A DNA stretch of 64,000 nucleotides from contig CAZVYP010000001.1 of the NCBI GenBank assembly GCA_964631075.1, forward strand, positions 26,647 through 90,646, written 5' to 3'. The stretch is from an uncultured Methanocellales archaeon. Its GTDB lineage: Archaea > Halobacteriota > JAWCLZ01. Under the pieces are notes generated by a model. The model saw only the letters and a list, made by a program, of their open reading frames with translations, searched no databases and was not told the DNA's origin. Within the stretch, counting starts at the first letter, position 1, and each line of letters opens with the position of its first letter. A program made the position numbers and the translations under genes. Of this stretch, positions 1,948 through 46,068 are shown one piece after another.

Positions 1948-2802
1948 ATGAAGCTTCGTGGAAGGGCAATGGCTTGCGGTGCAGGCACAATAATCAACGC
2001 CATTGCAACGTGGAAGGGAGCTGCTTTTGCAATCGATTTGAAAACCACTGCTGAGGTGGAGATCAGCGATCGATACAGAGGTGTGAAGGGTAAGGTTGCT
2101 GGCGGTGGAGATGCGCGATTGATAGAGCGATGCGTGGAGCTTGTGCTCCGGAGATTTAAAATCAAAAGCGGCGCGAGAGTTAAAACTTGGAGCGAAGTGC
2201 CCATGGCAAGGGGTTTGAAGAGCAGCAGTGCTGCCGCAAATGCCTCGATGCTCGCTGCGCTCAGCGCGCTTGATGAGAAGTTAGAGCCGCTTGAGGCTGT
2301 TAAGCTTGGCGTTAAAGCGGCGAGGGATAGCGGCGTTACCATCACGGGTGCGTTTGATGATGCATGTGCTTCTTTCCTCGGCGGCATTGTGGTTACTGAT
2401 AACAGAGAGCACATTTTGATTAAAAGGATTGAATATGAGGCTGTAGCCGTAATTTATGTGCCCGACAGGCTTGCTTTTACTAAAGATGTTGATGTTAAGA
2501 GGGTTGAGACAATCGCGCCTTTTGTTGATATTGCCTTTGATCTTGCGCTTGAGGGCGAGTTTGAACTGGCGATGACGTTGAATGGCTTGCTGTATTGCAG
2601 TGCTCTGGGCTTTAATCCTGAGCCGATAATCAGCGCCATCGAGAGTGGAGCGAGGGCAGCGAGTTTATCCGGGAAGGGACCTGCAATAATTGCTCTTGCT
2701 GATGAAGATGATGTTAAGGAGATTCGCAGGGACTGGAGAAAACTGCGCGGAAAGATTATAATTTCGAAGGTTAATAACACTGGAGCAGGAGTGCTTGCTT
2801 AG
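1948..2802 (+). CDS. aroK: Archaeal GHMP-type shikimate kinase
   Basis: GTIINAIATWKGAAFAIDL and GAFDDACASFLGG resemble archaeal shikimate kinases (MJ1440 family). Start moved to the internal Met (MKLRGRAMACGAG), because the ORF-track start at 1897 lies 30 nt after the tRNA. Confidence 0.75.
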   Translation: MKLRGRAMACGAGTIINAIATWKGAAFAIDLKTTAEVEISDRYRGVKGKVAGGGDARLIERCVELVLRRFKIKSGARVKTWSEVPMARGLKSSSAAANASMLAALSALDEKLEPLEAVKLGVKAARDSGVTITGAFDDACASFLGGIVVTDNREHILIKRIEYEAVAVIYVPDRLAFTKDVDVKRVETIAPFVDIAFDLALEGEFELAMTLNGLLYCSALGFNPEPIISAIESGARAASLSGKGPAIIALADEDDVKEIRRDWRKLRGKIIISKVNNTGAGVLA

Positions 2803-3099
2803 GTGAGATGCATGCCAACAAGATCTCTGGAGAAAGTTAGAGCCGAGTTGGATAAGATCGATGAGCAAATTATCGAGCTGATCGAAAGAAGGACAAGGCT
2901 TGCGGAGGATATTCTGGCGGCCAAAATGGAGGCTAACGTCGGCATTGACGACCCCGATCGGACCAAAAAAGTTCTGAAGAGGGCGGGCAGCAGAGCAGCG
3001 GAGAAAGGTCTTGACGTCGAAGCTGTGAAGCGGATTTTCGAAATTCTTGTGGAGATGAATACTCTCCGTCAAAAGGAGTTAATGGGCAGGTTTTTTTAA
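2803..3099 (+). CDS. Chorismate mutase (AroQ class)
   Basis: 98-aa all-helical protein with RAELDKIDEQIIELIERRTRLAEDI... typical of AroQ chorismate mutases. Adjacent to shikimate kinase. Confidence 0.7.
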   Translation: MRCMPTRSLEKVRAELDKIDEQIIELIERRTRLAEDILAAKMEANVGIDDPDRTKKVLKRAGSRAAEKGLDVEAVKRIFEILVEMNTLRQKELMGRFF

Positions 3100-3840
3100 A
3101 TTTGCACCGGCGATAAGACCTACAAGCAAGCCTGATAGATGTGCTGCGTGTGCGATTGCATCGCCTGTGCCCATCATCAGAAAATCGATCAGAGCAAAGA
3201 AAATGACTGCCATTCCTATTTTCATTGGAATGAAGTATATGTAAACTGTCATATTTGGCTCGAGCATTGCCAGTGCGCCGAAAACGCCGTAGAGGGCTCC
3301 GCTTGCACCAAGCACGGGGTTTATCGAGGTTAAGCTATGGCCTATTCCTGCGATTATTCCTGATGTGAAAAATATAAGCAGGAACATCTTGCTGCCGATT
3401 TTTTTCTCGAGCGCTGGTGCGAAGAAGATCATGAACAGCACGTTGAAGAAGAAGTGATAAAATCCGCCATGCAGGAAGATATGCGTGATCAGTGTCCAGG
3501 GTCTCTGTTCGATATTCAGAGGCCTTAATATCAGTAGCTCGGTGTAACCAGGAATGAGTTGCAGTATGAATGAGATGGAAATAATGAACAGTAGTAAATA
3601 GGAATAGTTCTTTGAGAAAAGGCTGAGTGGAGCAAGAACTCTACTTGCTATTCCTGGCTGTGCTTTAGTCGGTTTTTCCCTTGATATGATTTTTCCTTCT
3701 CTGAGATCTTTTTTATATTTTTCCAGCCCCACGCACCAGTGGTTTTCCGGCAGGCGGTGCTCCTCGCAAAAGCTGTCGCCACAGAATCTGCATTTGTACG
3801 GTAGATATATCTGCTTTCCGCAGACAGTGCACTGTGCCAT
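3079..3840 (-). CDS. Rhomboid-family intramembrane serine protease with N-terminal AN1-type zinc finger
   Basis: N-terminus CTVCGKQIYLPYKCRFCGDSFCEEHRLPENHWC (zf-AN1 pattern). C-terminal multi-TM region has the rhomboid motifs GASGALYG (catalytic Ser) and AHAAHLSG (catalytic His). Confidence 0.75.
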   Translation of the reverse strand: MAQCTVCGKQIYLPYKCRFCGDSFCEEHRLPENHWCVGLEKYKKDLREGKIISREKPTKAQPGIASRVLAPLSLFSKNYSYLLLFIISISFILQLIPGYTELLILRPLNIEQRPWTLITHIFLHGGFYHFFFNVLFMIFFAPALEKKIGSKMFLLIFFTSGIIAGIGHSLTSINPVLGASGALYGVFGALAMLEPNMTVYIYFIPMKIGMAVIFFALIDFLMMGTGDAIAHAAHLSGLLVGLIAGANLKKPAH

Positions 3841-3943
3841 TTACTGGGAGATGATGATGCCTGCGAAAATAAAACTTTGTATATATCAAAAAGATTATTA
3901 ACCAAAATACTGAATTATTGATACGTTAAAGAGGTATAAGTGT

Positions 3944-4198
3944 ATGGCCAAGATATTTGCAAAGCATCTGTCTGATCGAAAAGTTGTCACCACCGATGGC
4001 GCAGCAATAGGCACGCTCTACAATATTACGATAGACTTAAAAACAGGTCGCCTTGTCGAGCTTGTTGTAAAGCCTGACCCGGCTGCCAATATTTCAGGGT
4101 ATACTGCTGAAGATGGCTTTATCATGTTACCGTTTGAATGTGTTAGAGCTGTTCAGGACTTTATCGCAATAGATAAAAAAGCAGCGGTTGTTCAATAG
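3944..4198 (+). CDS. PRC-barrel domain protein
   Basis: 84-aa protein (VVTTDGAAIGTLYNITIDLKTGRLVELVV) typical of archaeal PRC-barrel proteins. Confidence 0.55.
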   Translation: MAKIFAKHLSDRKVVTTDGAAIGTLYNITIDLKTGRLVELVVKPDPAANISGYTAEDGFIMLPFECVRAVQDFIAIDKKAAVVQ

Positions 4199-4931
4199 CT
4201 GTGTGAGCTGGTTTGCGGTGCGGCGCTTGCTATTTTTTCCCATCGCACTACCTTTGTTCGTCCTGCTGATCATCCTTATTCCAATCGTTTTGGTTTTATT
4301 CATGCTTAATATTGGCTTTACGGTATTCGAGGTACTTGGGTTCACTCCAGCAGTTGCAGTTATAATTTTGACAGGAATAATATTTGGAAGCCTGATAAAC
4401 ATTCCAATTTATGAGTTTTCCACAAGACACGAGCCGCTTATTTCAGAAGCTGATATCGAAACCGGAGTGCCGTATAGAATACAGTGGAGGGAGAGCAGAA
4501 CTGTGCTTGCGATAAATGTTGGAGGAGGGGTAATTCCACTGGCCATTTCAATTTATTTCCTTACAAGTATTCCTTTAGCCGCGTTTCTGTTCACAACATG
4601 CTTTGTTTCTCTGGTTGCATATTTTATATCCAGACCTGTTTCTGGATGGGGGATCACGGTGCCACTTTTGGTTCCTCCCCTCGCTACACTTGCAATTGCC
4701 TACTCCACGCTTTATTTCAGCGGAGGATTGCCTCACTTAGCAAAGCTTGCCTTTGCATCTGGCGTTTGCGGTGTTATAATTGGAGCTGATTTGCTTAATA
4801 TTCCCAAGGTGAAGAAAAATGGTACACATGTTATGAGTATTGGCGGGGCTGGCACTTTTGATGGCATTTTGCTGACTGCGATTTTTGCAACAATCGCCGC
4901 CGCTCTCCTAGCTGCAGGGAGCATATACTGA
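4188..4931 (+). CDS. Polytopic membrane protein (DUF1614-like)
   Basis: 247 aa with multiple hydrophobic spans and an INVGGGVIP motif. Start overlaps the upstream gene stop. Confidence 0.45.
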   Translation: MFNSCVSWFAVRRLLFFPIALPLFVLLIILIPIVLVLFMLNIGFTVFEVLGFTPAVAVIILTGIIFGSLINIPIYEFSTRHEPLISEADIETGVPYRIQWRESRTVLAINVGGGVIPLAISIYFLTSIPLAAFLFTTCFVSLVAYFISRPVSGWGITVPLLVPPLATLAIAYSTLYFSGGLPHLAKLAFASGVCGVIIGADLLNIPKVKKNGTHVMSIGGAGTFDGILLTAIFATIAAALLAAGSIY

Positions 4932-5285
4932 TGGGGCTTGGAGCTGTGAAAAGGAGCCGGTAACAGGCTGAGATTTTGGAGTTGTCCCTCGACACTAACC
5001 CCGGGGGATCATCCGTTGGCGAGCGCCGCTGTCCATCCCGGTAAACCCTGTGTCGAGGAGTGTTTCGCGCTATGGTTGTCTCAAGGTCATTGCCTGGATA
5101 TTCCATTTACTCCCGTGAGGACCTATATAGCACGAGATGTCGCCCTCTTTTTGCTCAGACGCTCATCCGCTCTAGAATAGAGTGTTGCGCCAGTCCTCGT
5201 TGAGGGCTATATAATGTTTCTCTGTTCTTGATATAAATGTATTGAAGAGTTTATTAAATTAAATCAAAATAAATTAAAAAATAAA

Positions 5286-5570
5286 TTAATGGGCTTTGGT
5301 TGCTTCAGCCACAGTTCTCTCTGCCAATTCCTGCATGCGAATTGAGATCCTGCTTGTTCCTGAAGAGTCCCCATCGCTCATAAGCGTTGCAAGTTTGGTG
5401 CCTAAAACAAAGATAGCATGTTTGTGCTCAGCCTTGCTGCGATGGATGTGCAATGGACTTATATGCAAAGAATTGTAGTCCGAAAAATCGCCGCCCATTC
5501 CATTTTGTTCAAAATAGCGTTTTATCTGTACCAACAAAGAATGCAGATGTATCAGTTCCTCCTTATGCAA
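5286..5570 (-). CDS. UPF0058-family small protein
   Basis: 94 aa starting MHKEELIHLHSLLVQIKRYFE, resembling archaeal UPF0058 proteins. Flanked by AT-rich spacers. Confidence 0.45.
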   Translation of the reverse strand: MHKEELIHLHSLLVQIKRYFEQNGMGGDFSDYNSLHISPLHIHRSKAEHKHAIFVLGTKLATLMSDGDSSGTSRISIRMQELAERTVAEATKAH

Positions 5571-8365: not shown

Positions 8366-8735
8366 GGGAGAGTGGAAGGGCAGCCGCCGGTGCTTCAAAG
8401 AAGTGCTGAGGAAAGTCCCCCCACCATCCGGACAGACGAGCGTGCGCAAGCACGCAGGGCGAGAGCTCTGGCTCTGGCACAGCCACGACACGTCCAGGCG
8501 AATGGGATGAGACGGCAAGCGTGAAAACGCAGAAGGAATTCAGCAATGGACTCCGAGCTAACCCGTCGACGACTCGCTTGGGAGCGATGGAACGGCGAAT
8601 CCTCGTCGGTGCAAGCCAGTAAGGGAAAAAGTCCGGATAAACCCTTGGTAGGCGCTAAGCCAAATGCTGCATGGTCCAAATCTCTGCCTGCGCGGAGGGG
8701 CCTAACCGAAGGGGGCTTATTCTCCACACTCCCGA
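8366..8735 (+). ncRNA. rnpB: RNase P RNA (archaeal type)
   Basis: ~370-nt GC-rich gap with no credible CDS. 5' GGGAGAGUGGA (8366-8376) pairs with 3' UCCACACUCCC (8723-8733) as P1. A P3-like hairpin GUGCUUC-AAA-GAAGUGC is followed by the CR-I-like GAGGAAAGUCCCCCC (8409-8422). That strand pairs with GGGGGCUUA (8711-8719) leaving one bulged nucleotide, as in helix P4. The 3' strand is preceded by ACCGAA (CR-V-like ACNRAA...GGCUUA). Confidence 0.6.
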
Positions 8736-8744
8736 TTGATATTA

Positions 8745-8820
<76 letters not shown>

Positions 8821-10269: not shown

Positions 10270-11283
10270 ATGGGAGTTGACCTCGGAGACCTGATCGAGC
10301 GCAGAGAAATAGAGCTGAATGAACTCGCGAATCGCATCGTAGCGATTGACGCCTACAATACCCTGTATCAATTCCTTAGCATAATAAGACAGCCAGATGG
10401 CACACCGCTTACAGACTCAAAAGGCAGAATAACTTCCCACCTCTCAGGACTCATATACCGCACCACCAATTTAATCGAAATAGGAGTCAAGCCGGTTTTC
10501 GTATTCGACGGCAGACCACCCCAGTTCAAAGCGACAACCCTCGAAGAGCGCGCCACAACCAGACAGAGAGCCGAAGAAGCCTGGATCGAAGCAAAAGCCA
10601 CAGTAAGCGAAGAAGCCTTCAAATACGCACAGGCCTCGGCAAGGCTGACGCAGGAAATGATCAGCGAAGCCAAAGCACTCATAGGATATATGGGCTTACC
10701 CGCGATACAGGCACCATCCGAAGGCGAGGCACAGGCATCATTCATGGTGCTCAGCGGCGACGCGGATTACGCAGCCTCACAGGACTACGATTCTCTATTA
10801 TTCGGCTCCCCCAAGCTAGTAAGAAACCTGACAATAACGGGAAAAAGAAAGCTACCGTCAAAGAACATATACATCGACGTCAAGCCAGAAACCATCGAGC
10901 TGCGAGAAATCCTGAAAAAGCTCGAAATCACCAGGGAGCAGCTCATAGACATCGGAGTCTTGATCGGCACAGACTACAACCATGGGATAAAAGGCATAGG
11001 GCCAAAGAAAGCCCTGAAGCTGATCAAAAAGCACGGCACAATAGAAGGCGCGCTGAACGAACTCAAACAGAACATAGACAGCTTCAAAGAGATAAAAGAA
11101 TTCTTCCTCAATCCAGACGTAACCAGCGAGTACGAAATAAAATTCAGGTCACCGGAAAACGAAAAAATCAAACAATTTTTATGCCAAGAACACAGCTTCT
11201 CAGAAGAAAGAATAGACAAAGTGCTCGAAAGACTGAGCATATTTAGAAGCACAATGAAGCAGAAGACACTTGACCAGTGGTAA
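10270..11283 (+). CDS. fen: Flap endonuclease 1 (FEN-1)
   Basis: 337 aa with an N-terminal XPG-N region (MGVDLGDLIERREIELNELANRIVAIDAYNTLYQFL), I-domain (DYDSLLFGSP, GTDYN) and helix-hairpin-helix (GIGPKKALKLIKKHG). Confidence 0.9.
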   Translation: MGVDLGDLIERREIELNELANRIVAIDAYNTLYQFLSIIRQPDGTPLTDSKGRITSHLSGLIYRTTNLIEIGVKPVFVFDGRPPQFKATTLEERATTRQRAEEAWIEAKATVSEEAFKYAQASARLTQEMISEAKALIGYMGLPAIQAPSEGEAQASFMVLSGDADYAASQDYDSLLFGSPKLVRNLTITGKRKLPSKNIYIDVKPETIELREILKKLEITREQLIDIGVLIGTDYNHGIKGIGPKKALKLIKKHGTIEGALNELKQNIDSFKEIKEFFLNPDVTSEYEIKFRSPENEKIKQFLCQEHSFSEERIDKVLERLSIFRSTMKQKTLDQW

Positions 11284-11305
11284 ATAAAAATAATATTATA
11301 ATAAA
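11269..11305. repeat. Direct repeat copy 1 (37 nt) overlapping the fen1 3' end
   Basis: cttgaccagtggtaaataaaaataatattataataaa covers the last four codons and stop of fen1 plus 22 nt downstream. It is identical to 12125-12161. Confidence 0.85.
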
Positions 11306-11414
11306 TTCACAAATATCGATTTGCTCCCTGGCAAATCTGAAAGAAACCAAAACCAAACATATATAACAACAGAGGCAGTTGAGGCTAGCTTCGAAGGCTC
11401 ACTTTCCCGAAGCA

Positions 11415-11432
11415 ACAAAATTTATATATACT
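11415..11432 (+). promoter_or_regulatory. TATA-like box upstream of the toxin-antitoxin cassette
   Basis: aaaatTTATATATAc lies ~35-45 nt upstream of ATG 11464, with GGTGAG RBS-like sequence at 11455-11460. A palindrome agCTTCGAAGg sits just upstream and could be an operator. Confidence 0.3.
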
Positions 11433-11463
11433 TTATATACCAAAATATATCTTTGGTGAGCAT

Positions 11464-11706
11464 TTGAACGATCTCCATTCGCTTCCGGTGTACTTCAAGA
11501 AGCACGCCGTTTTGATGCTTGCCGAGCGCTTTGAGCTGGATTCGCAGGATGCCGAGCATCTTGTAAAAACTGCCAAGTTGCTTAAGCCCATCGAGAAGGA
11601 TGGCGAGATTGGCCTTCTGCAAAGCTGCATTGGCGAGTGCGAGATCAGATTTGTATTTACAATTAGAAAGAAAGTCGTCTGGATAATAACCGTGGAGGAA
11701 ATATGA
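11464..11706 (+). CDS. DUF4258-like small protein, putative RelE/ParE-fold toxin
   Basis: 80 aa. HAVLMLAERFELDSQDAEHLVKTA resembles the DUF4258 core (HAxxRMxERGIxxxEIE). The C-terminus IRFVFTIRKKVVWIITVEEI has the alternating hydrophobic beta pattern of RelE-like toxins. It is translationally coupled (ATGA overlap) to the next gene. Confidence 0.45.
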   Translation: MNDLHSLPVYFKKHAVLMLAERFELDSQDAEHLVKTAKLLKPIEKDGEIGLLQSCIGECEIRFVFTIRKKVVWIITVEEI

Positions 11707-12008
11707 AAACGAAAGTAGTTGAGTGTCCAATCTGTGAATCTCCCATGAGCCGGGAGAGAAGGGAGATCAAAAAGGGAATTTACGCTGAGGTCGAGGTCTG
11801 CCCTAAATGCAATGACGAGTGGATTGATGAGAGGGGCTACGACGAAATCTATCAGCAGCTTTTCACACGCCGAGCCTTTAAAATCGGCGGCAGCCTGGCT
11901 ATTCGCATTCCCCGGGAGATTATTAAAGCGCTCAATCTGCACGAAAATAGCGAGCTCAAGGTCAATCTCAGGGATAATAAAATTGTGATCGAGCCTTTGA
12001 AAACGTGA
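11703..12008 (+). CDS. Putative antitoxin: YgiT/MqsA-type zinc finger fused to AbrB/SpoVT swapped-hairpin DNA-binding domain
   Basis: The N-terminus VECPICESPMSRERREIKKGIYAEVEVCPKCNDEWIDE matches the YgiT-type (MqsA N-domain) CxxC...CxxC zinc finger. The C-terminus FKIGGSLAIRIPREIIKALNLHENSELKVNLRDNKIVIEPL is a canonical AbrB/MazE/SpoVT domain. Confidence 0.55.
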   Translation: MKTKVVECPICESPMSRERREIKKGIYAEVEVCPKCNDEWIDERGYDEIYQQLFTRRAFKIGGSLAIRIPREIIKALNLHENSELKVNLRDNKIVIEPLKT

Positions 12009-12124
12009 GAAAAAAATCCCTCCCAGGGTCACTTGAAATCTTCAATCAGCTATAATAGAAAATCTAACAGCTTCTTAAGTTTATCACGATTTATATAACA
12101 ATAGTCTCCTGCTTTTCTCCGCCT

Positions 12125-12161
12125 CTTGACCAGTGGTAAATAAAAATAATATTATAATAAA
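12125..12161. repeat. Direct repeat copy 2 (37 nt)
   Basis: Identical to 11269-11305. Both copies are followed by ~40 nt of degenerate similarity (ttgctccc..aaatctg) containing short hairpins. Confidence 0.85.
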
Positions 12162-12357
12162 ATTATCCAATACGGCTTGCTCCCGAAAAATCTGCATGCA
12201 ATATTATATGTGGTGAGCAAGCCATATCTGAAAAGGATGAGGCCGCCCTGAGGCGGGTGGGACGAAGTAGGGAAGGGATCACTGCTTTTCTTTTCCAGGG
12301 TTTCGCTGACAAAAAGCTATTAATACTTATGTAACTAAAATCTTTTTTAGCGAGATT

Positions 12358-13173
12358 ATGGTTACAAAAAAAATAAGACTTGGTGATATGGAGCTGAAGT
12401 TGCTGTTCACGCTGGAACAAGAAGGAAAAAACGTGTTTCTAGCAAGTGATGCACACAGAATCCTGAAGTCAACGGATGCCTCTGTGAGAAACGTGCTCTA
12501 CAGGTTGAGAAAAAAAGGCAGAATCGAAGAGATAGAGAAGGGGAAGTATCTGCTGGTGCCCGCGAGAGCCGGTTACAAAGCAGAATGGTCGGAGGTTCCT
12601 TTTCTGCTTGTCCCGCACCTGATAGATAACTACTACCTTGCCTTCTGGTCGGCTCTTAACTACTGGGGCATGACAGAGCAGTCTCCTCGCTCGGTGTTCG
12701 TTGCGACAACGAAGAGAAAAAGAGATTTAACCTACGGAGACACAAAATTTGAGTTCGTGACGCTTGCAAAAAAAAAGTTCTTCGGATTCGTGGAGGAAAA
12801 AACTAATGGAGGCAAATTCAACATCTCTTCAAGAGAGAAAACAGTTGTAGATTGCTTGCTGTATCCAAAGTACTCCGGTGGGCTGGACGAAGCGGTAAAA
12901 GGAATATGGAGGGGAAGAAAAGAGCTGGACTTCGAAAAAATGCTGGAGTACTCGAAAAAGATGGGAGTAGAAGTGGTAACCAGAAGGCTGGGATATATAC
13001 TGGAATTGCTGAAAATTGAAAATAAGATAAGTTCAAAGATAGCCTCTGGCAAATTCAAAGGATATATGTGGCTTGACCCATTGGGAACCAAGAAGCCTAT
13101 AGAATATTCAAAGAAGTTCGGGCTTGCGATAAACCGAACAAGCGAAGAGCTAAAAAGCTGGATGGAGCATTAG
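12358..13173 (+). CDS. AbiEi-family (type IV TA) antitoxin / wHTH transcriptional regulator
   Basis: 271 aa. N-terminal wHTH with RLRKKGRIEEIEKGKYLLVP, typical of the AbiEi_4 antitoxin N-domain. The C-terminal domain is consistent with AbiEi. It is followed 2 nt later by an AbiEii fragment. Confidence 0.65.
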   Translation: MVTKKIRLGDMELKLLFTLEQEGKNVFLASDAHRILKSTDASVRNVLYRLRKKGRIEEIEKGKYLLVPARAGYKAEWSEVPFLLVPHLIDNYYLAFWSALNYWGMTEQSPRSVFVATTKRKRDLTYGDTKFEFVTLAKKKFFGFVEEKTNGGKFNISSREKTVVDCLLYPKYSGGLDEAVKGIWRGRKELDFEKMLEYSKKMGVEVVTRRLGYILELLKIENKISSKIASGKFKGYMWLDPLGTKKPIEYSKKFGLAINRTSEELKSWMEH

Positions 13174-13174
13174 G

Positions 13175-13552
13175 ATGAACGCTGACGATTTAAGAAGACT
13201 TGCGAGAAGAACCGGTTTTGACGCTGGAACTCTTGAGAAAGACTATGCTCTAACATGGCTGCTCAGCGGCATTTACTCAGAGGATTCCAAGCTGAGAGAC
13301 ATCCTGATTTTCAAGGGAGGCACTGCGATCAGAAAGGTTTACTTTCCAGAGTGGCGACTCTCAGAAGATCTGGACTTTACCATCACGCAGAAGGTAACGC
13401 CGGAAACTGTGAGACAGAGTTTTGAGCAGGTTTTTCCGCTGCTAAAAGATACCAGCAAAATTGCCTACTCTCTCAGCTCCTTCAATTACAGCAAACACGC
13501 AATTTTCGCGGATGTTCAGTTTCTTGGTCTGGCGGCTGATGAAGGAAAATGA
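13175..13552 (+). pseudogene. AbiEii/AbiGii (DUF1814) nucleotidyltransferase toxin, truncated to the N-terminal 125 aa
   Basis: LEKDYALTWLLSGIYS ... LIFKGGTAIRKVYFPEWRLSEDLDFT matches the conserved N-terminal nucleotidyltransferase region of AbiEii toxins. Full-length proteins are ~250-300 aa. This one stops after 125 aa, and the downstream space is occupied by a convergent gene. Confidence 0.55.
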
Positions 13553-13570
13553 CTTAGTTCTTCATCTTGA

Positions 13571-14608
13571 TTATTTTTCGGTGAGAATTCGCATATCTGC
13601 GTCTTGGAAGTGTCGAAAGGCTTTCTTGGCGTATTTTTTGTCCATTCTCAGCGCATAAATCTGCAGCGCCTTCAGAGCAGCTGATCCGCCAATTTCTTCA
13701 TCGAATGACATCTGGATGGTCCATCCAGTACTTCGCAGATAATCGGTGCCTGTCACCAGGTCTTCCTCCTTCACTCCTTTCTGTGGAATACGCTCGCAAG
13801 AGATTCCGAACTCTGATAAAATCCTGAAAACCGTATCGTTAAGGAAAGACCAGATTGCCAGTGTCTTCTCGCTGCCCCGGTTGGTAAGGAAGGTTCTGGC
13901 ATCAATCATTAGAGGTGAGCTCTTCTCTTTCTCGAATTTGCCGTAGTTTCCGAGTATCCACAGAAACCTCAAAATATGTGTTCTCACTTTCTCAAGTTTA
14001 TGATGTTGACCGAACGTGTCGGCATCTCGAAATCCGAGTGAAGAAAACTGCAAGGTTGACAGCAGCCTGTGAACTGCGCTGAAAGCCTCGGTCTCTTCTT
14101 CGGTGAATTGCAGTTTCTCTGGAAAGTCGACGATCTTCTTCTTGGTTATCAATATTCTTGCTGGTTCTGCAATCTCTTCTGGCTTCAGCGAAGCACGAGT
14201 CGCCTCCAGGCGATTTATTCCCTCAAAAGGTTCTACAAAAGCGTGATAGTCATCTTTAGAAATGGGCGCGCCAAGCTTTTCTTCTATAGTCTTTCGATTC
14301 CAGGCACCGGCCGTTGCTTTCAAAATGTCACATGGAAATCGCGAACAATAAGCACAATTTGCCACTCCACTCCTGTCCACGCATTGCCGTATCAAACATT
14401 TTCGATTAGGCAGCTTAGATCCTTTGGGAATTTTCGAATCTGGAGTCAGGCATGTCACGCACGGCGTCTTAATCGGCATGTATCCTAAAATCGCCTTGGC
14501 GTTGTTTCTGTAATGTTCAAATTCCGAGGCAGTCATGCTCTTCCTTGGATAAGGTCCCCAGGGACATCTACCGCAATCTATGCCGCATTTAGAAACGAGC
14601 TTTGCCAC
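13571..14608 (-). CDS. DUF3795-like Cys-rich (putative Zn-binding) protein with uncharacterized C-terminal domain
   Basis: N-terminus CGIDCGRCPW ... CVTC ... CLIRQC ... CAYCSRFPC fits the DUF3795 cysteine pattern. The remaining ~190 aa have no recognisable motifs. Confidence 0.5.
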   Translation of the reverse strand: MAKLVSKCGIDCGRCPWGPYPRKSMTASEFEHYRNNAKAILGYMPIKTPCVTCLTPDSKIPKGSKLPNRKCLIRQCVDRSGVANCAYCSRFPCDILKATAGAWNRKTIEEKLGAPISKDDYHAFVEPFEGINRLEATRASLKPEEIAEPARILITKKKIVDFPEKLQFTEEETEAFSAVHRLLSTLQFSSLGFRDADTFGQHHKLEKVRTHILRFLWILGNYGKFEKEKSSPLMIDARTFLTNRGSEKTLAIWSFLNDTVFRILSEFGISCERIPQKGVKEEDLVTGTDYLRSTGWTIQMSFDEEIGGSAALKALQIYALRMDKKYAKKAFRHFQDADMRILTEK

Positions 14609-14754
14609 TGGTTAACCTCCAAAATAACAAATGTGGAATGACATAAATAAGGACTTCTCATGACAAATCCTTTACGTGTAATACTAAGATTTGTCCTTTG
14701 GGTAATGATAAATACATTTAAAAAAAGATGCGATACTGAGATAGCCTGAAAAGG

Positions 14755-15117
14755 ATGGTGGAATCGATGAAATTCTATTCAGAACGGGAAATGAAGAGTC
14801 TGAGGCTGGAGCTTGAGAAGAGAGTTTTACAATGGCCTCAGGTTAGCACCAAGAAGATGTTTGGCTGTCCCTGCTATCAGGCAGATCGAAGGATCTTTGT
14901 TTTTCTGGTTACTGATGGTATTGTGATCACTCAAATAAGTCAGGCTGACAGAGAGACGCTATCCCGTCAGCATCAGACCAGTTTTTTCCAGGCGGGCAAA
15001 AAAATTATTCAGAGCTGGTTGAAGGTCTTTATTAAGAACAAGGCAGAGCTTGACCAGATCATGCCATTTATTAGAAAAAGCTATGAGTCAGCACTTATCC
15101 TTACATCAGCAAAATAA
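14755..15117 (+). CDS. Hypothetical protein (TfoX_N/YjbR-like fold?)
   Basis: 120 aa. KKMFGCPCYQADRRIFVFLVTDGIVI loosely resembles the MFGG..y..g..Fa.i..d.L pattern of TfoX-N/YjbR-family proteins. Confidence 0.3.
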   Translation: MVESMKFYSEREMKSLRLELEKRVLQWPQVSTKKMFGCPCYQADRRIFVFLVTDGIVITQISQADRETLSRQHQTSFFQAGKKIIQSWLKVFIKNKAELDQIMPFIRKSYESALILTSAK

Positions 15118-15215
15118 TTCACTTCGAAAGAGAAAAGCCATTTTTCGAGTTTGATTTTGAATAATTTTGCCAGACCACAATTTATATTACTCAGTAAAGT
15201 AAACTATACTTTGTA

Positions 15216-15884
15216 ATGAAAAGAGGTTTGAAGTTGATAGAGCTCACTCCCGAGGGAAGAATCGTGGCAGCATTGATCGGAGGGGCTTTGAGCTATGGCA
15301 AATTAAAAGCTAAAACTAGCTTGAGCGACCGGTGGCTCTCCATCAAGTTAAAAGAACTGACTTCGGTCGGAGTAATAGAATATAGAGGCAATGGTTATCA
15401 GCTTATGAATCCTGCTGATGTTCTTGGAGATCCGGTTTTTGCAAAATATGTGGAGGGAAGCGTTCAGTTAAAGACAAAGGCAAAATTAATTGCCGAGGAG
15501 CTGAGCGTCGACGAGCAGGTTTGCGCTGTGATACTCTTTGGCAGTCTGGCGAAGGGAAAGGCTACTGAGGAAAGCGATGTCGACCTGGTTGTGGTCACGG
15601 AGATGGATGTCGAGGAAAAGTTGAACAGGGTGATTTATAATCTTATGTTCAAGTACGACGTGGCAGTTGAGGCAGTTTTCCTGACAGTTGAAGATCTGAT
15701 AATAAATCTTCAGTCCAGAACTGCCTTTTCTTTCGGGATGCTTGAAGCTTATGAGGTGCTGTATGATAAAATTGGAATAGAGTACCTCCTCCGTGTAAAG
15801 CAAAGAGAACTTCGAGAGAACTGGACTTATGACGAAGAGGCCGCGGCATGGATTCAAAAGAGGCTAATACCTACTTGCAGATAG
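15216..15884 (+). CDS. wHTH + minimal nucleotidyltransferase (MNT) protein, antitoxin-like partner of HEPN
   Basis: N-terminal winged-helix-like segment, then the MNT signature ILFGSLAKGKATEESDVDLVVV (GS...D.D). Overlaps the downstream HEPN gene by 37 nt. Confidence 0.65.
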   Translation: MKRGLKLIELTPEGRIVAALIGGALSYGKLKAKTSLSDRWLSIKLKELTSVGVIEYRGNGYQLMNPADVLGDPVFAKYVEGSVQLKTKAKLIAEELSVDEQVCAVILFGSLAKGKATEESDVDLVVVTEMDVEEKLNRVIYNLMFKYDVAVEAVFLTVEDLIINLQSRTAFSFGMLEAYEVLYDKIGIEYLLRVKQRELRENWTYDEEAAAWIQKRLIPTCR

Positions 15885-16279
15885 CGCTGGATCAGTTGAA
15901 AGATGCTGAACTGGCGTTTAAAAATGAGAGGTATGCTCTCTGTGTGCTCCTGGCGGCTTTATCTGCAGAGAATGCAACTTCTGCCTGGCTTATAGTGCTG
16001 GGAGCCAAACCTAGCAAGAAACATAGAAATTCCCTGGTATTGAAAAGACTGGCGGAGAGCATTAACGAGAAGCTGAAGGAAGGATTGATGGAAGCGATCA
16101 GATCCATGGAAGAGCTTGAACCGCATGTTACTAAAGCCAGATATCCGATTCGCCATGACTTAGAACTTCTCCCACCCAGCAAATTTTACACAAAAGAAAA
16201 AGCAGCAGAAAGCTTAGCTAAAGCAGAATATGTGGTTGAGCTTGTAAAACAGAGAGTTCACACAGATTTTAAAAGCTGA
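15848..16279 (+). CDS. HEPN-domain protein (toxin-like partner of MNT)
   Basis: 143-aa helical protein. The N-terminus YLQIALDQLKDAELAFKNERYALCVLLAALSAENATSA is typical of HEPN. KARYPIRH is a candidate Rx4-6H motif. Confidence 0.6.
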   Translation: MDSKEANTYLQIALDQLKDAELAFKNERYALCVLLAALSAENATSAWLIVLGAKPSKKHRNSLVLKRLAESINEKLKEGLMEAIRSMEELEPHVTKARYPIRHDLELLPPSKFYTKEKAAESLAKAEYVVELVKQRVHTDFKS

Positions 16280-16459
16280 ATTAGAAGCCTCTTCATCCTA
16301 GAAAGATTGAGAAAAATTAATAAATAAGTAAAATATTTCCAATAAATTTAAATATTTATATAGACAATTGTAATATTATGCCAAAAAGACATAATTATTT
16401 GGTAATTATCATAATCATCTTTGTTCTGATAGATTTGTCTAACTTGCCTGGGAGACATT

Positions 16460-17215
16460 ATGGCAAATATGCAAGAACGTGTTAAGTCTGGAATTGAGGG
16501 CTTTGATGAGATCTGCGGTGGTGGTTTGATCAGGAACAGGAGCTACCTTATCGCAAGCGGAAGTGGTGCCGGCAAGACCATATTCGGAGTTCAATTTCTT
16601 TACAACGGTATTGTGCATTATGATGAAAATGGAATTTTTGTTGCCACTGAAGAGCGACCCGAGCAGATCAGAAAAGATATGCTAAACTTCGGCTGGGACC
16701 TAAAAAAGCTTGAAGAAGATAAGAAGTTCGCGATAATAGATGCCTCTGCAACAAAAATCGGAGTACCGTCACAGGAGCGCTATGTCGATGTTCGCCACTC
16801 TGATCTGGGATCGATGCTCGATCAGATAGTAAATGTTCAGGAGGAAACTAATGCAATGCGCATCGTTGTGGATTCAACAACTGCGATCGGGTTTTCCCTG
16901 AATAATGATGCCACGAGTATTCGACTGGGCATGTTGAAGCTTGGTGCAACACTCGGCATGCTGGGTTTGACATCGATCCTGATTTGCGAGGTATTGGATG
17001 AGAGACGTCCAAGCAGATTCGGGGTAGAGCAGTTCGTTACTGAAGGCACCATTGTGATGTATAACCACAGAACTGAAAACGGACGCGTGCGAAGCATTGA
17101 GATATTCAAAATGCGAGGCTCAGACCATAGCAAAAAGGTCCACCCATACGAGATCACATCTCAGGGAATCGTAGTGCACCCGCGCGATGAGAGACATATC
17201 TTAAAGGAGGGTTAA
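16460..17215 (+). CDS. KaiC-like single-domain RecA-superfamily ATPase
   Basis: GIEGFDEICGGGLIRNRSYLIASGSGAGKT (Walker A), Walker B ...IVVDS, typical of archaeal KaiC/RadA-like ATPases. Confidence 0.8.
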   Translation: MANMQERVKSGIEGFDEICGGGLIRNRSYLIASGSGAGKTIFGVQFLYNGIVHYDENGIFVATEERPEQIRKDMLNFGWDLKKLEEDKKFAIIDASATKIGVPSQERYVDVRHSDLGSMLDQIVNVQEETNAMRIVVDSTTAIGFSLNNDATSIRLGMLKLGATLGMLGLTSILICEVLDERRPSRFGVEQFVTEGTIVMYNHRTENGRVRSIEIFKMRGSDHSKKVHPYEITSQGIVVHPRDERHILKEG

Positions 17216-22678: not shown

Positions 22679-22794
22679 GGGCTCGTAGCTCAGTTAGGCA
22701 GAGCATCTGGCTTTTATTCTCTGGACCATCGCGAGTAGCGAGTGGAAGCCTAGAAGATACCAGGTGGCCGGGGGTTCAAATCCCCCCGAGCCCG
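22679..22794 (+). tRNA. tRNA-Lys (anticodon TTT) with ~42-nt intron
   Basis: Acceptor GGGCUCG/CGAGCCC, D-arm GCUC-AGUUAGGCA-GAGC, anticodon stem UCUGG/CCAGG. Mature loop CUUUUAA is obtained by removing 42 nt after position 37. T-arm GGGGG-UUCAAAU-CCCCC, discriminator G. Confidence 0.6.
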
Positions 22795-39150: not shown

Positions 39151-39243
39151 ATTTTAATTTTATTTTTATTTGTTATATAAATATATTATTTTATAAAAGA
39201 TGCTGAACAAGCTATATAGCCAAAGAAATATTACCTTTAGACC

Positions 39244-40488
39244 ATGCGCTTCGAAGACGAAAAAGAGGCACATCCCACCCTTGATATTAAAGCATCGAAA
39301 GCCACCACATTGTCAGGCAAGAAGATCGTTTTAGCTGTAACCGGCAGCATCGCAGCAGTTGAGTGCATTAAGCTTGCCCGCGAATTAATACGCCACGGCG
39401 CAGACGTCTATGCAGTTATGAGCAAAGAGGCAACTCGCATTCTGCATCCAAATGCCCTTGAATATGCCACAGGGCACAGAGTGCTAACAGAGATCTCAGG
39501 TGCCGTCGAGCACGTGGAATACTGCGGGGAGCGCGAGCTCGCAAAACGAGCTGATTTGCTTTTGATTGCTCCCTGTACCGCGAATACCATCGGCAAAATC
39601 GCCTGCGGAATTGACGATACTCCAGTTACCACTTTTGCCACAACAGCACTTGGCTCAAAAATTCCAATCATAATCGTGCCAGCAATGCATGCTTCGATGT
39701 ACTCACATGCAATTATTGCCGAGAACATTGAGAAGCTTAAAAAACTTGATATAAAATTCATCGGCCCGAGATTTGAAGAAAAGATAGCGAAGCTCGCAGG
39801 GGTTGAGGAGATAGTTATAAATGTCGAGCGTACTCTGGGTCCGCACGAGCTCGCTGGAAAAAATATAATAATAACTGGCGGAGCGACTGCAGAATCCATC
39901 GACCCGATTCGCATTCTCACTAATCGCAGCTCAGGTAAAACCGGCATTGAGCTTGCAAATGAAGCATACCGCAGAGGAGCAAACGTCACGCTCATCCAGC
40001 GCTCTCATTTAAGCTGCGCCACTCCCGAGATTAAGTCGATATCCATAGAGAGCGTCGAGGAGATGATCAGTGCAGTCGTGAAAGAGATGGAAAAAGAGCG
40101 GTATGAGGTATTGATAAGCGCGGCGGCAATCTCTGATTTCACTGCCGCCAAGCATTCCACGAAAATCAAGTCCGGCGAGCCGGTGCTGCTTCGCCTCAAG
40201 CCAACTCCGAAGCTGATAAGAAAGGTAAGGGAGAAATATCCGGATTTATTCGTAGTTGGTTTTAAAGCCGAGACTCATGTTTCTGAGGGAGAACTCCTGA
40301 GACGCGCAAAGAGCTTGATGCAGCGCGACCGTCTGAATATGATGATAGCAAATGACGTCGCCGACGGCGGAATTGGAACTGAGAGCAATGATGTTTATAT
40401 CATCACCGGAAGTGGTGTTGAGCGGATATCTGGCCTGAAGCGAGAAATCGCGAGAAAGATCTTGGATAAAGTAGCGGAGCTGCTCTGA
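39244..40488 (+). CDS. coaBC: Bifunctional phosphopantothenoylcysteine decarboxylase / phosphopantothenate-cysteine ligase (CoaBC/Dfp)
   Basis: N-terminal flavoprotein (KKIVLAVTGSIAAVECIKLAREL...PAMHASM) and C-terminal CoaB domain (ITGGATAESIDPIRILTNRSSGKTG). Confidence 0.85.
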   Translation: MRFEDEKEAHPTLDIKASKATTLSGKKIVLAVTGSIAAVECIKLARELIRHGADVYAVMSKEATRILHPNALEYATGHRVLTEISGAVEHVEYCGERELAKRADLLLIAPCTANTIGKIACGIDDTPVTTFATTALGSKIPIIIVPAMHASMYSHAIIAENIEKLKKLDIKFIGPRFEEKIAKLAGVEEIVINVERTLGPHELAGKNIIITGGATAESIDPIRILTNRSSGKTGIELANEAYRRGANVTLIQRSHLSCATPEIKSISIESVEEMISAVVKEMEKERYEVLISAAAISDFTAAKHSTKIKSGEPVLLRLKPTPKLIRKVREKYPDLFVVGFKAETHVSEGELLRRAKSLMQRDRLNMMIANDVADGGIGTESNDVYIITGSGVERISGLKREIARKILDKVAELL

Positions 40489-41336
40489 TGAAGAGCAGAG
40501 CCTTTGCACCAGCCCATATAACCGGTTTTTTTGAAATCTGTGAGGATAGCGAGCCGCTGAGAATGGGCTCAAGGGGCTGCGGCATTGTATTAGACACTGG
40601 AATAACAACCGAGGTCAGAACTGGCGCTGAGACCTTTATCGAGCTAAATGGAAAGAGAGAGCAAGCTGAGACAAGCAGGTGGGTGGTAACCGCACTGGCA
40701 AATCGCGCCCAAGTTGAAGTGTGCTCAAAAGTTGAGATTCCTATAGGCTGTGGACTTGGAGCAAGCGGGGCTGGCGCGCTGAGCACTGCATTTGCTCTGA
40801 ACAGTGCTCTGGCACTTGAGAAAAGCTTTAACGAACTAGCGTCAATAGCGCACGTTGCTGAGGTTGAGAATCGCACAGGTCTTGGAAGTGTTATGGGCCA
40901 GTGTCACGGAGGAGTAGTTATCAGAAAGCAGCCGGGAGCGATTGGATTTGGAGAAGTTGATAGGATTCCAACTGGAAAATTGCAGATTTTTTACATAGCA
41001 ATGGGCGCAATCCCGACGAAAGAGGTAATCACCAGCAGCACTGCTAAAAAGAAGATAAATCTCTCCGGTAGAGGGGCTTTGAAGGCACTGCTAAAAAAGC
41101 CCACTTTTGAAAATTTTATGAAGCTCTCCAGATGGTTTGCTTATAAAACCGAGCTTGTTAGCGGCAGAGCCAGAGATATTATCGAAGCAGTTGAGGCAGA
41201 AGGCGGGGCTGCCAGCATGGCGATGCTCGGCGACACCGTTTTTGCAGCAAATATCAAGGAAAGCGCTTTGAAAAGAGCTGTATCCGGAAAGATCAGAAAA
41301 GCTCGCATCTGCCAGAGTGGCGTGCACCTGCTGTAG
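40488..41336 (+). CDS. GHMP-family kinase, probable pantoate kinase (archaeal CoA pathway)
   Basis: GHMP motif IPIGCGLGASGAGALSTAFAL. N-terminus APAHITGFFE. Overlaps the coaBC stop (ATGA), so context supports the CoA pathway. Confidence 0.6.
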   Translation: MKSRAFAPAHITGFFEICEDSEPLRMGSRGCGIVLDTGITTEVRTGAETFIELNGKREQAETSRWVVTALANRAQVEVCSKVEIPIGCGLGASGAGALSTAFALNSALALEKSFNELASIAHVAEVENRTGLGSVMGQCHGGVVIRKQPGAIGFGEVDRIPTGKLQIFYIAMGAIPTKEVITSSTAKKKINLSGRGALKALLKKPTFENFMKLSRWFAYKTELVSGRARDIIEAVEAEGGAASMAMLGDTVFAANIKESALKRAVSGKIRKARICQSGVHLL

Positions 41337-41348
41337 CCAGAGAAAAGC

Positions 41349-42608
41349 CTACATCTGTTCGCCGAAAGTGGTCTGAGTAAAGCTTCTGAGCATAGTCAGC
41401 GGAAACTTCACTCCATCAAGCGAGCTCAATCGCGGGTCTTCAAGCAAAACGCTCCTGGTACCGTCAAGAGGCACGCTCAGCGTGATTTCTTTAGTCCTGC
41501 CATATCTTCCCTTGCTTACAACAATTGCATTTATAATCCCAAGCATGTCAAGTTCTGATATCAAATCGGTCACCCTTCTCTGGGTGAGCTCGTCTGATCC
41601 GATCTGCTTGCAGAGTCTTCTATAAACATTAAAAACTTCTCCCGTAGTTGCATTTTTTGCTCCTGATTCGTCCAAGATGATCATGCTGTATAACACTAGC
41701 TTGCTTTGAGTCGGCAGAGTTCTTATTACCTCTATGATTCTGTCGACTTCGATTTTCTCCTGCGCCTGCCGCACATGCGCCTCTGCAACCATGGTAGCCT
41801 TTTGCCTCTCTGCCAGCTCTCCAGCAACTCTCAAAAGGTCAAGCGCCCTTCTCGCATCACCGTGCTCCTGGGCAGCTATTGCTGCGCACAGGGGTATTAC
41901 TTCGGTTGAGAGCGCATTTTTCTTGAAAGCTGAGATTGCCCTTTGCTCAAGTATATCCCGGAGCTGATCAGCGTTGTAAGGAGGGAAGATTATTTCTTCT
42001 TCTCCAAGAGAGCTTTTTACTCTCGGGTCGAGTAACTCTGTGAACTTCAAGTCATTGGTTATGCCGATTACGCTGACCTTCGCCTTGTTTAGCTCGGCGT
42101 TTATTCTTGATAGATTATAGAGCGTGTCATCGCCGCTTTTTTTAATCAGCTTATCTACCTCGTCAAGCATGATTATTACTACCTGTTCTTTCGTATCCAG
42201 AGCCTCTTTGAATTCTTTATATACGTGATCTGTAGGCCAACCCGTGAACGGCACCTCTCTGTTGAAGCTGTTGGCTAAATGCGCCAGTACTCGATATTGT
42301 GTATCAATGACCTCGCAATTTATGTAAAGCACAATACAGGGTATTCCTTTAGATTCCCCTGTTACCTCGAGCTGCTTTCCTACATATTTTGCAGTAGCTG
42401 TTTTACCGGTCCCGGTCTTGCCATAAATTAAAACGTTGGATGGAGTCTCATTTCTCAATGCAACTACAAGTATGGTTGCAAGTGCTTCTACCTGTGTCTT
42501 TCTGTGAGGAAGATAATCAGGCGTATAAGATGGTCTGAGGATTTCTTTATTTTCAAAAATCGGCTCAATTTTTAACAGATGTTCGAATATACAGCCTTCC
42601 ACTGTCAC
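41349..42608 (-). CDS. cdc6: Orc1/Cdc6 replication initiator
   Basis: LRPSYTPDYLPHRKTQVEALATIL, Walker A GKTGTGKTATAKYV, Walker B IIMLDEVD, C-terminal winged helix. Confidence 0.9.
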   Translation of the reverse strand: MTVEGCIFEHLLKIEPIFENKEILRPSYTPDYLPHRKTQVEALATILVVALRNETPSNVLIYGKTGTGKTATAKYVGKQLEVTGESKGIPCIVLYINCEVIDTQYRVLAHLANSFNREVPFTGWPTDHVYKEFKEALDTKEQVVIIMLDEVDKLIKKSGDDTLYNLSRINAELNKAKVSVIGITNDLKFTELLDPRVKSSLGEEEIIFPPYNADQLRDILEQRAISAFKKNALSTEVIPLCAAIAAQEHGDARRALDLLRVAGELAERQKATMVAEAHVRQAQEKIEVDRIIEVIRTLPTQSKLVLYSMIILDESGAKNATTGEVFNVYRRLCKQIGSDELTQRRVTDLISELDMLGIINAIVVSKGRYGRTKEITLSVPLDGTRSVLLEDPRLSSLDGVKFPLTMLRSFTQTTFGEQM

Positions 42609-43224
42609 ACCCCCAGCATATTAGAGAGATTTTGCACTCGAAGTAACGGCTTATTCTATAATAAATATTGTGGTTAACGTTTGCTAAGACCTTTGTTTCT
42701 CCTGCAGATATTTTTATTTTAATTTTTAATAAAAATAAATTAAGACTTTCCTTTGAAAAATAAAGCTTTAGAGCTTTTATTCGTATGTTCAATTTTTTCA
42801 ATAATTAAAATAGCTGATCTGCAATACCCCTTAATTTCCACTCGAGTTGTTCTGTTAACTCCAACCCCTATATTTCAAATGGAGATTCTGTTACTTAGAT
42901 TGTCATTCTTCTTTAACTTAAACTTACATAAATATAAGATTGGTGTTTTGTTATACAATTACAAATATATATATGTTTCTATTATTTTGTGATAATAGAT
43001 TAATAATAGATATACATCACATCTATTCCCAACGCTATTAAAAATGTAGACTTGCAAATGAAAAATAGGGGGCGGGTGCGCACGATATAGTTAGAGCAGC
43101 AATCAGAAGTCAATTCAGGGCATCACATTTTTAACACATAAACGGGTTCCCTAAGCGTAAAAATTATATAGAAGTGTTCGTCTATTATTAATTTTGAGAT
43201 CCAAAAATTACTGGAGGTTTTAAA
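42609..43224. promoter_or_regulatory. Putative replication origin (oriC): AT-rich unwinding region with an ORB-like element
   Basis: ~600-bp non-coding, very AT-rich spacer directly upstream of cdc6. At 42835-42846, TTTCCACTCGAG matches the reverse complement of the archaeal mini-ORB core (GTTTCCACTGGAA) at 10/12 positions. A G-string (gggggcgggtg) lies at ~43069. Only one ORB-like copy was recognised. Confidence 0.4.
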
Positions 43225-43461: not shown

Positions 43462-43501
43462 TTTTACCAACATTTTTTTATTTATCGCAAGCATCTAACT
43501 G

Positions 43502-44095: not shown

Positions 44096-44100
44096 TATGT

Positions 44101-45987: not shown

Positions 45988-46068
45988 AAGGCGAACCTGC
46001 ATTGCTCTTTTTAACCCCCCTCATTTAATATACAATAAGAGTAATGTATCAAAAGACGAAACAGAGCG

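Follow-up and report, generated by a model that had tools for sequence, protein, structure and literature searches.

Small accessory pieces, probably acquired separately, 3' of fen1 in an archaeon related to Methanocellales/Methanosarcinales

Introduction

In the toxin–antitoxin (TA) pair MqsR/MqsA, the antitoxin MqsA binds the toxin MqsR via its Zn-binding N-terminal domain. In the MNT-HEPN family, the toxin is neutralised by AMPylation. Modules that resemble both systems, and a third module of the abortive infection (Abi) type AbiE, lie in a stretch of archaeal DNA just 3' of fen1, the gene of the flap endonuclease FEN1. The stretch covers positions 11284-16400 of a window of 64,000 nucleotides (nt). 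The window is the whole DNA that was analysed, and positions given without a contig name are window coordinates. The host is related to Methanocellales/Methanosarcinales; its FEN1 is 79% identical to that of one Methanocellales metagenome-assembled genome (MAG), here called L001, and at most 68% identical to all else.

DUF4258 has been placed among the TA toxins of the BECR fold, with its activity given as unknown and with DUF4258-MqsA fusions on record (Gerdes 2025, PMC11980606). The same source gives the DUF4258 gene order as antitoxin-first (PMC11980606). A 2026 preprint assigns DUF4258 to a colicin-like branch of the BECR toxins. The DUF3800-X RNA motif was described by Weinberg et al. 2017 (PMC5737381). 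No function of this RNA could be found in the literature, and DUF3800 is described as an RNase H-fold protein linked to non-coding RNAs.

Results

Content of the stretch

We believe that small accessory pieces, each acquired separately, make up the stretch 3' of fen1 as a patchwork, and that it is neither one island nor a new defence system (probability about 0.7). It contains three small TA modules, two unrelated widespread genes and one small RNA. This reading builds on the observed gene content, repeats, truncation, folds and motifs, and on the distribution and contexts of the homologues. The distribution of the genes is of the accessory type: AbiEi reaches 60-87% and the DUF3795 protein 67-68% identity to distant lineages, against at most 68% for FEN1 outside one MAG. 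The original prediction for this stretch, made from the sequence, agreed with our open reading frame list and with the Pfam, PADLOC and NCBIfam searches on all eight genes, in position and in domain, and its three modules of the TA or Abi type are present. The intergenic spacers are also AT-rich as predicted (GC content 0.24-0.375, against 0.46 for the window). The predicted repeated switching of gene orientation was not seen, and only one of the eight genes (13571-14608) is on the minus strand.

Direct repeats at the 3' end of fen1

The clearest piece of the patchwork is module 1, which is bounded by direct repeats as follows.

10270-11283, plus strand: fen1 (flap endonuclease), with XPG_N and XPG_I domains; core gene and recombination target
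11269-11305, plus strand: direct repeat copy 1 (attL-like), CTTGACCAGTGGTAAATAAAAATAATATTATAATAAA; 37/37 nt equal to 12125-12161
12125-12161, plus strand: direct repeat copy 2 (attR-like), with the detached last five fen1 codons including the stop codon (LDQW*)

The perfect 37-nt repeats flank 11306-12124, so the prediction of a repeat-bounded gene pair held. The match is beyond chance, since none as good arose in 100 shuffles, and no exact match to the 37 nt was found in IMG/VR. Each copy opens with the final 15 nt of fen1, CTTGACCAGTGGTAA. The fen1 terminus CTTGACCAGTGGTAAATA appears to be native because the 79% relative L001 ends its fen1 in the identical CTTGACCAGTGGTAAATA. The left edges of the repeat are sharp, and on the right side a similarity of about 63% continues for a further 41 nt or so. 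An identical core with one diverged arm is the pattern expected of attL/attR, that is, of recombination between two related partner sites. Recombination of partner sites fits better because a fresh duplication would be identical throughout. The repeats are direct evidence that module 1 was inserted by recombination at the 3' end of fen1. Att-type direct repeats at a gene end bound 11269-12161 only, and the rest of the stretch is unbounded by repeats.

Logan short-read contigs break at the repeat ends: one (L081, from SRR8539650) stops 22 nt past the fen1 stop codon, and another (L282) begins inside copy 2. Such breaks are expected for assembly at k=31 and independently confirm the repeat in the raw data of SRR8539650.

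The toxin–antitoxin pair of module 1

Module 1 (11306-12124, 819 bp between the repeats) consists of a TATA-like palindromic sequence and two genes, with the toxin first.

11421-11440, plus strand: TATA-like, partly palindromic, promoter/operator-like sequence, TTTATATATACTTTATATAC, read from the sequence with its function inferred
11464-11706, plus strand: predicted toxin of 80 aa, DUF4258-like, BECR (RelE/MqsR) fold, TTG start
11703-12008, plus strand: predicted antitoxin with a Zn ribbon (C8xxC11...C33xxC36) and a C-terminal AbrB/MazE domain (MazE_antitoxin 1.8e-12; PDB MazE 2.5e-6)

Relatives of the toxin were scarce, with only 22 related representatives among 1.84 billion in an exhaustive HMMER search. 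Of 16 aligned relatives, 9 match DUF4258 (best 3.6e-7) and no other family. The AlphaFold (AF2) model of the 80-aa toxin is confident, with a predicted local distance difference test score (pLDDT) of 92.6. It has two helices followed by an antiparallel sheet, as in the RelE/MqsR toxins of the BECR fold, and is closest to MqsR. The two genes are co-oriented and overlap by 4 nt. The same pair, with the toxin followed by an AbrB-type antitoxin, recurs in both other contexts obtained (contigs L304 and L305), and the antitoxin of L304 also carries the Zn ribbon. The partner of the toxin is thus adjacent and co-oriented, has a DNA-binding domain and belongs to a conserved pair, as is expected of a cognate antitoxin. 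Searches of Pfam, NCBIfam and PDB gave no MqsA family match for this antitoxin. Its C-terminal domain is AbrB/MazE despite the Zn ribbon, which places the pair outside the MqsRA family proper. On these features, module 1 is predicted to be an MqsRA-like type II TA pair with an exchanged DNA-binding domain.

The cassette DNA had no match in plasmids. Its closest homologue lies on L304 (NCBI CP070751.1, at about 2.38 Mb of a 5.16-Mb genome) at 2504-5380, within a run of small genes on the same strand, and has a similar palindrome, ATATACTTTGTATATAC, at the matching upstream position. Repeated units of about 230-380 nt, with inverted ends CCGCCTCC...GGAGGCGG, lie between the genes of this run. 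No Rfam family matched these units. They could be elements like miniature inverted-repeat transposable elements, or recombination sites of a cassette array.

A decayed AbiE module

The original prediction of an AbiEi with a truncated AbiEii proved right for module 2.

12318-12335, plus strand: conserved abiE promoter/operator-like sequence, TATTAATACTTATGTAAC; left edge of the abiE cassette
12358-13173, plus strand: abiEi (antitoxin/transcriptional regulator), full length; PADLOC AbiEi 7.4e-81 over residues 8-269, AbiEi_4 plus AbiEi_1
13175-13552, plus strand: abiEii remnant, 125 aa; codons 1-118 of 260, then 7 unrelated codons and a stop codon; PADLOC profile positions 4-117 of 260

The 18-nt operator-like motif starts about 40 nt before the abiEi start and is common to the close homologues on contigs L292, L302 and L303. 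AbiEi has the N-terminal winged helix-turn-helix (HTH) and the C-terminal AbiEi domain of its family. More than 400 homologues were found, mostly of 271 aa. Their identity of 60-87%, reaching records named Methanoperedens, Methanolobus and Nitrososphaeria/Thaumarchaeota, marks the AbiE module as widely exchanged. IMG/VR held no close relative of abiEi.

The remnant of abiEii ends its homology after codon 118. Over residues 1-118 it is 68% (MAFFT) or 72% (tblastn) identical to the full-length 260-aa AbiEii of L302. The GG...DLD motif is retained, and the C-terminal half including QRGKARDYYD is missing; residues 119-260 were found nowhere in the window by tblastn. The remnant is therefore not a full-length AbiEii (DUF1814). 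Because the toxin is truncated, abiEii is regarded as a pseudogene, and AbiE as unable to work in abortive infection. Between the break and the stop codon of the convergent DUF3795 gene lie 19 nt, and therefore a deletion or replacement joined two unrelated neighbourhoods there.

In Candidatus Methanoperedens nitroreducens (GCA_030069165.1; L292, 4819-6486), abiEii is split by an insertion sequence of the DDE_Tnp_1 type at about codon 125. The nearness of this split to the truncation at codon 118 may hint at recurrent inactivation of the AbiEii toxin.

A DUF3800-X RNA without DUF3800

A small RNA that is absent from the original prediction lies between repeat copy 2 and abiEi, with a T-rich stretch downstream.

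12211-12284, plus strand: DUF3800-X RNA (Rfam RF02984), 58.6 bits against a gathering score of 38.2, model positions 1-73 of 73

True copies of RF02984 were found by a pattern scan on viral contigs of IMG/VR: L164/L242, L208 (two copies), L213 and L259.

L164 2767-2846; L213 1155-1233; L259 4344-4423, minus strand: RF02984 copies
L208 8804-8883 and 9461-9566, both minus strand: RF02984 copies of 94.6 and 39.7 bits, one on either side of a QueD/PTPS-like gene

The virus L208 has a Mu-like portal.

In an alignment of six copies (that of the window and five from IMG/VR contigs), 14 of 19 pairs showed compensatory changes, and three helices were supported. Paired cells made up 92.5% of this alignment, against at most 57% in slid controls; the alignment was fitted to the covariance model, which favours the structure. 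No DUF3800 (PF12686) gene was found in the window, by the domains of the island proteins or by tblastn with a DUF3800 protein. Among four distinct IMG/VR copies examined, a DUF3800 gene adjoins the RNA in L259 only, where it is convergent. The orphan RNA may act without the DUF3800 protein. Its occurrence here without the gene, together with most viral copies being likewise, is a small usable clue that its role may not need DUF3800. We also considered the RNA as a leader of abiE; this was rejected, as it is absent upstream of the close abiEi homologues in L292, L302 and L303.

The DUF3795 and TfoX_N-like proteins

Two genes separate the AbiE module from module 3.

13571-14608, minus strand: Cys-rich DUF3795 protein, 345 aa, DUF3795 over residues 5-97
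14755-15117, plus strand: TfoX_N / MmcQ-YjbR-like small protein, Pfam TfoX_N 1.3e-4, below the cut-off

The Cys-rich DUF3795 identity of the first was rightly predicted. Its uncharacterised part, which had been put at 190 aa, comprises about 250 aa (98-345) and is helical and winged-helix-like. The structure model is confident only for residues of about 160-345, and searches for a known fold of this region gave weak winged-helix matches only. It may be a DNA-binding protein with a link to metals or redox. Its full-length homologues form more than 120 clusters at 64-76% identity, and Bathyarchaeota proteins share 67-68% with it. The gene thus appears well conserved and horizontally exchanged, because this identity is well above that of FEN1 at such distance. 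The neighbours of its homologues vary by place (B12-radical SAM enzyme, aconitase/POR, ThrRS).

For the TfoX_N-like protein, the start is probably at 14767, which gives 116 aa as in NCBI/Logan records. About 60 homologue clusters of about 113 aa were found, most with PF04993/PF04237, and the predicted TfoX_N/YjbR likeness was confirmed through them.

Five independent contexts were obtained for homologues of the two proteins (aconitase/POR, ThrRS, B12-radical SAM, LeuA/diphthamide synthase and OsmC). In every context inspected, they stand singly amid housekeeping or metabolic genes, and the two genes are not neighbours elsewhere. Neither protein matched a PADLOC model. The original prediction had named these unknown-domain proteins as the likeliest place for a new defence function; with single-gene housekeeping contexts and no PADLOC match, this was not supported. 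We consider both proteins to be poor defence candidates and bystanders. Such genes could be mistaken for "novel defence genes" when they are merely widespread single genes.

The MNT-HEPN module

Module 3 is an MNT/HEPN pair with overlapping genes, as foreseen from the sequence.

15216-15884, plus strand: MNT antitoxin, extended at its N-terminus by about 90 aa (a winged HTH in the original prediction); NTP_transf_2 and Polbeta, PADLOC PDC-M05A and PDC-S09
15848-16279, plus strand: HEPN toxin, Pfam HEPN 6.4e-16

The MNT gene is upstream and overlaps the HEPN gene by 37 nt. Both motifs were found intact by regular expression: G109S-x10-D-V-D in the nucleotidyltransferase and R98-YPIR-H103 (Rx4H) in HEPN. 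These are the features of MNT-HEPN systems, namely a HEPN Rx4-6H motif and a GSx9-13DxD nucleotidyltransferase whose gene lies upstream of and overlaps the HEPN gene. The MNT protein matched NCBIfam MntA at 2.7e-9, with 36.9 bits against an equivalog cut-off of 60 bits. Judged by its motifs, the pair is predicted to be intact, with both catalytic motifs kept.

Relatives, synteny and composition

A FEN1 scan of GTDB genomes gave the one relative at 79%; the others were at 68% or less and had no shared neighbours. JGI metagenomes held no FEN1 relative above 68%. Ten proteins were looked up: each formed a singleton 90% cluster or shared its cluster with nothing but a shorter call of its own gene, except the TfoX_N-like protein, for which there was no exact sequence.

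L001 shares the upstream order histone-p240-zr72-fen1 and, about 8.8 kb downstream, the DAC-domain and beta-CASP genes. The segment of L001 from fen1 to the DAC-domain gene is occupied by genes for liv-type ABC transporters, AlaX, radical SAM proteins and DUF1614. The island genes are all missing from it, and so are kaiC, PFK, the response regulator and the PepSY protein; gene order agrees again only from the DAC-domain gene (window 20553) onward. The variable interval may extend to about 20500, though the evidence is weak, since L001 is rearranged elsewhere too. Positions 1-8503 of L001 match window 39241-47244 (including the GrpE gene) and adjoin the histone gene in L001. A rearrangement of at least 30 kb separates L001 and the window genome, and synteny arguments are therefore limited.

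The gene GC content, the GC content at third codon positions (GC3) and the codon scores of the eight genes are inside the window spread. The stretch as a whole has a GC content of 0.428, against 0.460 for the window, and 14% of equal-sized windows have a greater tetranucleotide distance. A foreign composition was rejected on all four measures (GC, GC3, codon score and tetranucleotide distance), and the proposed comparison of composition and codon usage gave no difference from the rest of the window. The lack of a compositional signal is consistent with amelioration or with transfer between similar genomes. A scan of the stretch for bacterial-type promoters and terminators was uninformative because the host is an archaeon.

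Flanking genes

The original prediction placed core genes on both flanks. The left flank is core: aminotransferase, GHMP kinase, rhomboid, DUF1614, DnaG-like Toprim, AMMECR1, RNase P RNA, tRNA-Val, histone and fen1. The right flank begins with a KaiC-like gene, which was not shown to be core.

16460-17215, plus strand: single-domain KaiC-like ATPase, Pfam KaiC 5.6e-71; right flank of the stretch

The proposed check of fen1-kaiC contiguity found kaiC next to fen1 in none of 160 related loci, and the gene is absent from this place in L001, so kaiC is not a conserved flank. Downstream of it lies a response regulator with a MetOD2 domain (Response_reg plus MetOD2).

Further left, an archaeal RNase P RNA (177 bits) was found at 8368-8731 on the plus strand. 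A 135-aa open reading frame antisense to it (8395-8799, minus strand) has an unusual GC content of 0.578 and the lowest codon score in the window; because the RNase P RNA occupies the same interval, this reading frame is almost certainly spurious. To the right, at 22679-22794 on the plus strand, a tRNA match over 116 nt went unreported by ARAGORN, which suggests that this tRNA gene contains an intron.

Discussion

What follows on the path of recombination, on the activities of toxins and antitoxins and on a possible part in phage defence or in stabilising the locus is inferred. A circular DNA with its own copy of the fen1 3' end would have recombined once with the chromosomal site and so brought in the cassette of module 1. 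Such an event would leave identical 37-nt repeats on both sides and regenerate the fen1 stop codon. The cassette may be all that survives of a larger integrated element, preserved through the resistance of TA pairs to loss; otherwise it may be a small cassette that a recombinase encoded elsewhere has moved. Both are proposed because no recombinase gene lies close by and a replicon would have to be larger than 856 bp. The stand-alone DUF3800-X RNA gene, of a kind otherwise found on viral contigs, would be the second piece of the patchwork. In the AbiE piece, the gene of the regulator/antitoxin AbiEi survives; AbiEii, cut after codon 118, would no longer be a toxin or part of an abortive-infection system. 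The DUF3795 and TfoX_N-like genes would be two bystanders, both widespread single genes. In the last piece, by analogy with MntA/HepT, a HEPN RNase would be held inactive by the nucleotidyltransferase.

Several points weigh against this reading. No integrase or other recombinase is encoded among the eight genes or in the immediate flanks, and a circle of 856 bp is too small for a replicon, so that the route of entry is the conditional part of the proposal. Logan contigs from three samples with this organism have one arrangement, with no empty site and no excised circle seen. The predicted toxin is under the Pfam cut-off for DUF4258 (PF14076; 17.6 against 25 bits, E 0.005). Separate acquisition of the other pieces follows from their differing distributions and the truncation junction, not from flanking repeats. 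The nearest genome has a FEN1 of 79% identity and is rearranged, and synteny is silent on which pieces are recent.

One alternative, which we consider unlikely, is that one large element, a provirus or integrative plasmid, integrated at the fen1 3' end and has since decayed. Its remnant would be 11284-16400, or everything from 11284 to about 20500, and repeat copy 2 would be an internal or secondary site. The att-like repeat at the fen1 end, an RNA family otherwise on IMG/VR viral contigs, TA and Abi modules as typical cargo of such elements, and a fen1-to-DAC segment entirely different in L001 all agree with this alternative. However, no third repeat copy was found in the window, even with 3 mismatches allowed. 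There is no integrase and no viral or plasmid gene, and the composition is host-like. Ordinary genes lie inside (DUF3795 and TfoX_N-like and, further right, kaiC, the response regulator and PFK), and the metabolic genes of L001 in this place speak for general rearrangement and not for an empty site.

The 37-nt repeat could also be a local duplication and no integration scar: the capture of the TA pair, or its move within the same chromosome, would have duplicated the 37 nt through slipped replication or illegitimate recombination. This seems quite unlikely. In its favour, the unit is very small with no recombinase gene nearby, and the AT-rich part of the repeat is of low complexity. Target duplications of transposition or slippage are normally far shorter than 37 nt, however. 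The homology of about 63% past the core is on one side only and fits two diverged partner sites better, and the start of the repeat falls exactly within the gene end, the usual position for elements that restore their target gene.

Because the TA pair of L304 sits in a gene run with repeated units bounded by inverted ends, it can also be asked whether the 856-bp unit (the 819-bp cassette plus one 37-nt repeat) is a mobile gene cassette complete in itself, and so the counterpart in archaea of the integron-type cassettes. It would then be moved as a small 856-bp circle by a recombinase that is encoded elsewhere and targets the 3' end of fen1. We hold this to be very doubtful.

A coherent 5-kb defence or mobile island bounded by core genes, with the C-terminal domain of the DUF3795 protein and the TfoX_N-like protein as uncharacterised defence components, is highly improbable: the two genes do stand between TA/Abi modules, and their high identity across distant lineages suggests horizontal transfer, but there is no integrase and no distal repeat, the composition is host-like, the kaiC flank is unconserved, the two genes are not neighbours elsewhere, no PADLOC model matches them, their five independent contexts are metabolic or housekeeping with single genes, and a full-length identity of 64-76% in more than 120 clusters is unlike fast-evolving defence genes.

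Under the patchwork reading, this is an ordinary TA-rich variable stretch. Three things in it are worth keeping: a cleanly scarred MqsRA-like cassette at fen1, a dead AbiE that is still called by tools, and an orphan DUF3800-X RNA. The scar is an unusually clean case of a TA pair caught where an essential gene of replication ends, in an archaeon that is related to methanogens and poorly sampled. Module 1 adds a toxin-first DUF4258/Zn-ribbon-AbrB pair to the MqsRA-like systems, and automatic tools would call AbiE here despite the truncated toxin.

Comparison with known systems

Like integrative elements at gene 3' ends, the cassette of module 1 has direct repeats (37 nt) that include the end of the target gene and leave the target intact. 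It differs from them in having no integrase and a cargo of only 819 bp with a single TA pair, and its target is the protein-coding fen1 and not a tRNA gene.

The pair itself resembles MqsR/MqsA of E. coli (PDB 3hi2) in that the toxin gene comes first and the antitoxin has a four-cysteine Zn ribbon followed by a DNA-binding domain. In contrast, this domain is AbrB/MazE (swapped-hairpin) and not XRE-HTH, the toxin is by sequence DUF4258 and not of the MqsR family, and the host is archaeal. DUF4258 is the sole Pfam family matched by the toxin and its relatives, and the MqsA-type fusions of that family fit the Zn-ribbon partner of module 1 (PMC11980606); the order in the window, L304 and L305 is toxin-first, unlike the published one. 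Whereas the 2026 preprint places DUF4258 in the colicin-like branch, the model of this toxin is closest to MqsR.

The RNA matches the DUF3800-X motif (PMC5737381) over its full length and above the gathering score, with three helices supported by covariation, and differs in that no DUF3800 gene is near it or in the window. Module 2 follows the type IV system AbiE (Dy et al. 2014, PMC3985639) in the order of AbiEi then AbiEii, with one base between stop and start, in its strong PADLOC AbiEi/AbiEii matches and in the upstream operator-like sequence, which is kept. Unlike that system (PMC3985639), its toxin has no C-terminal motifs, and the module is an orphan antitoxin/regulator with a pseudogene. 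Module 3 is like the type VII system MntA/HepT in its nucleotidyltransferase gene upstream of and overlapping HEPN and in the presence of GSx10DxD and Rx4H. Its difference lies in the MNT protein of the window, which carries an N-terminal extension of about 90 aa and matches MntA below the equivalog cut-off.

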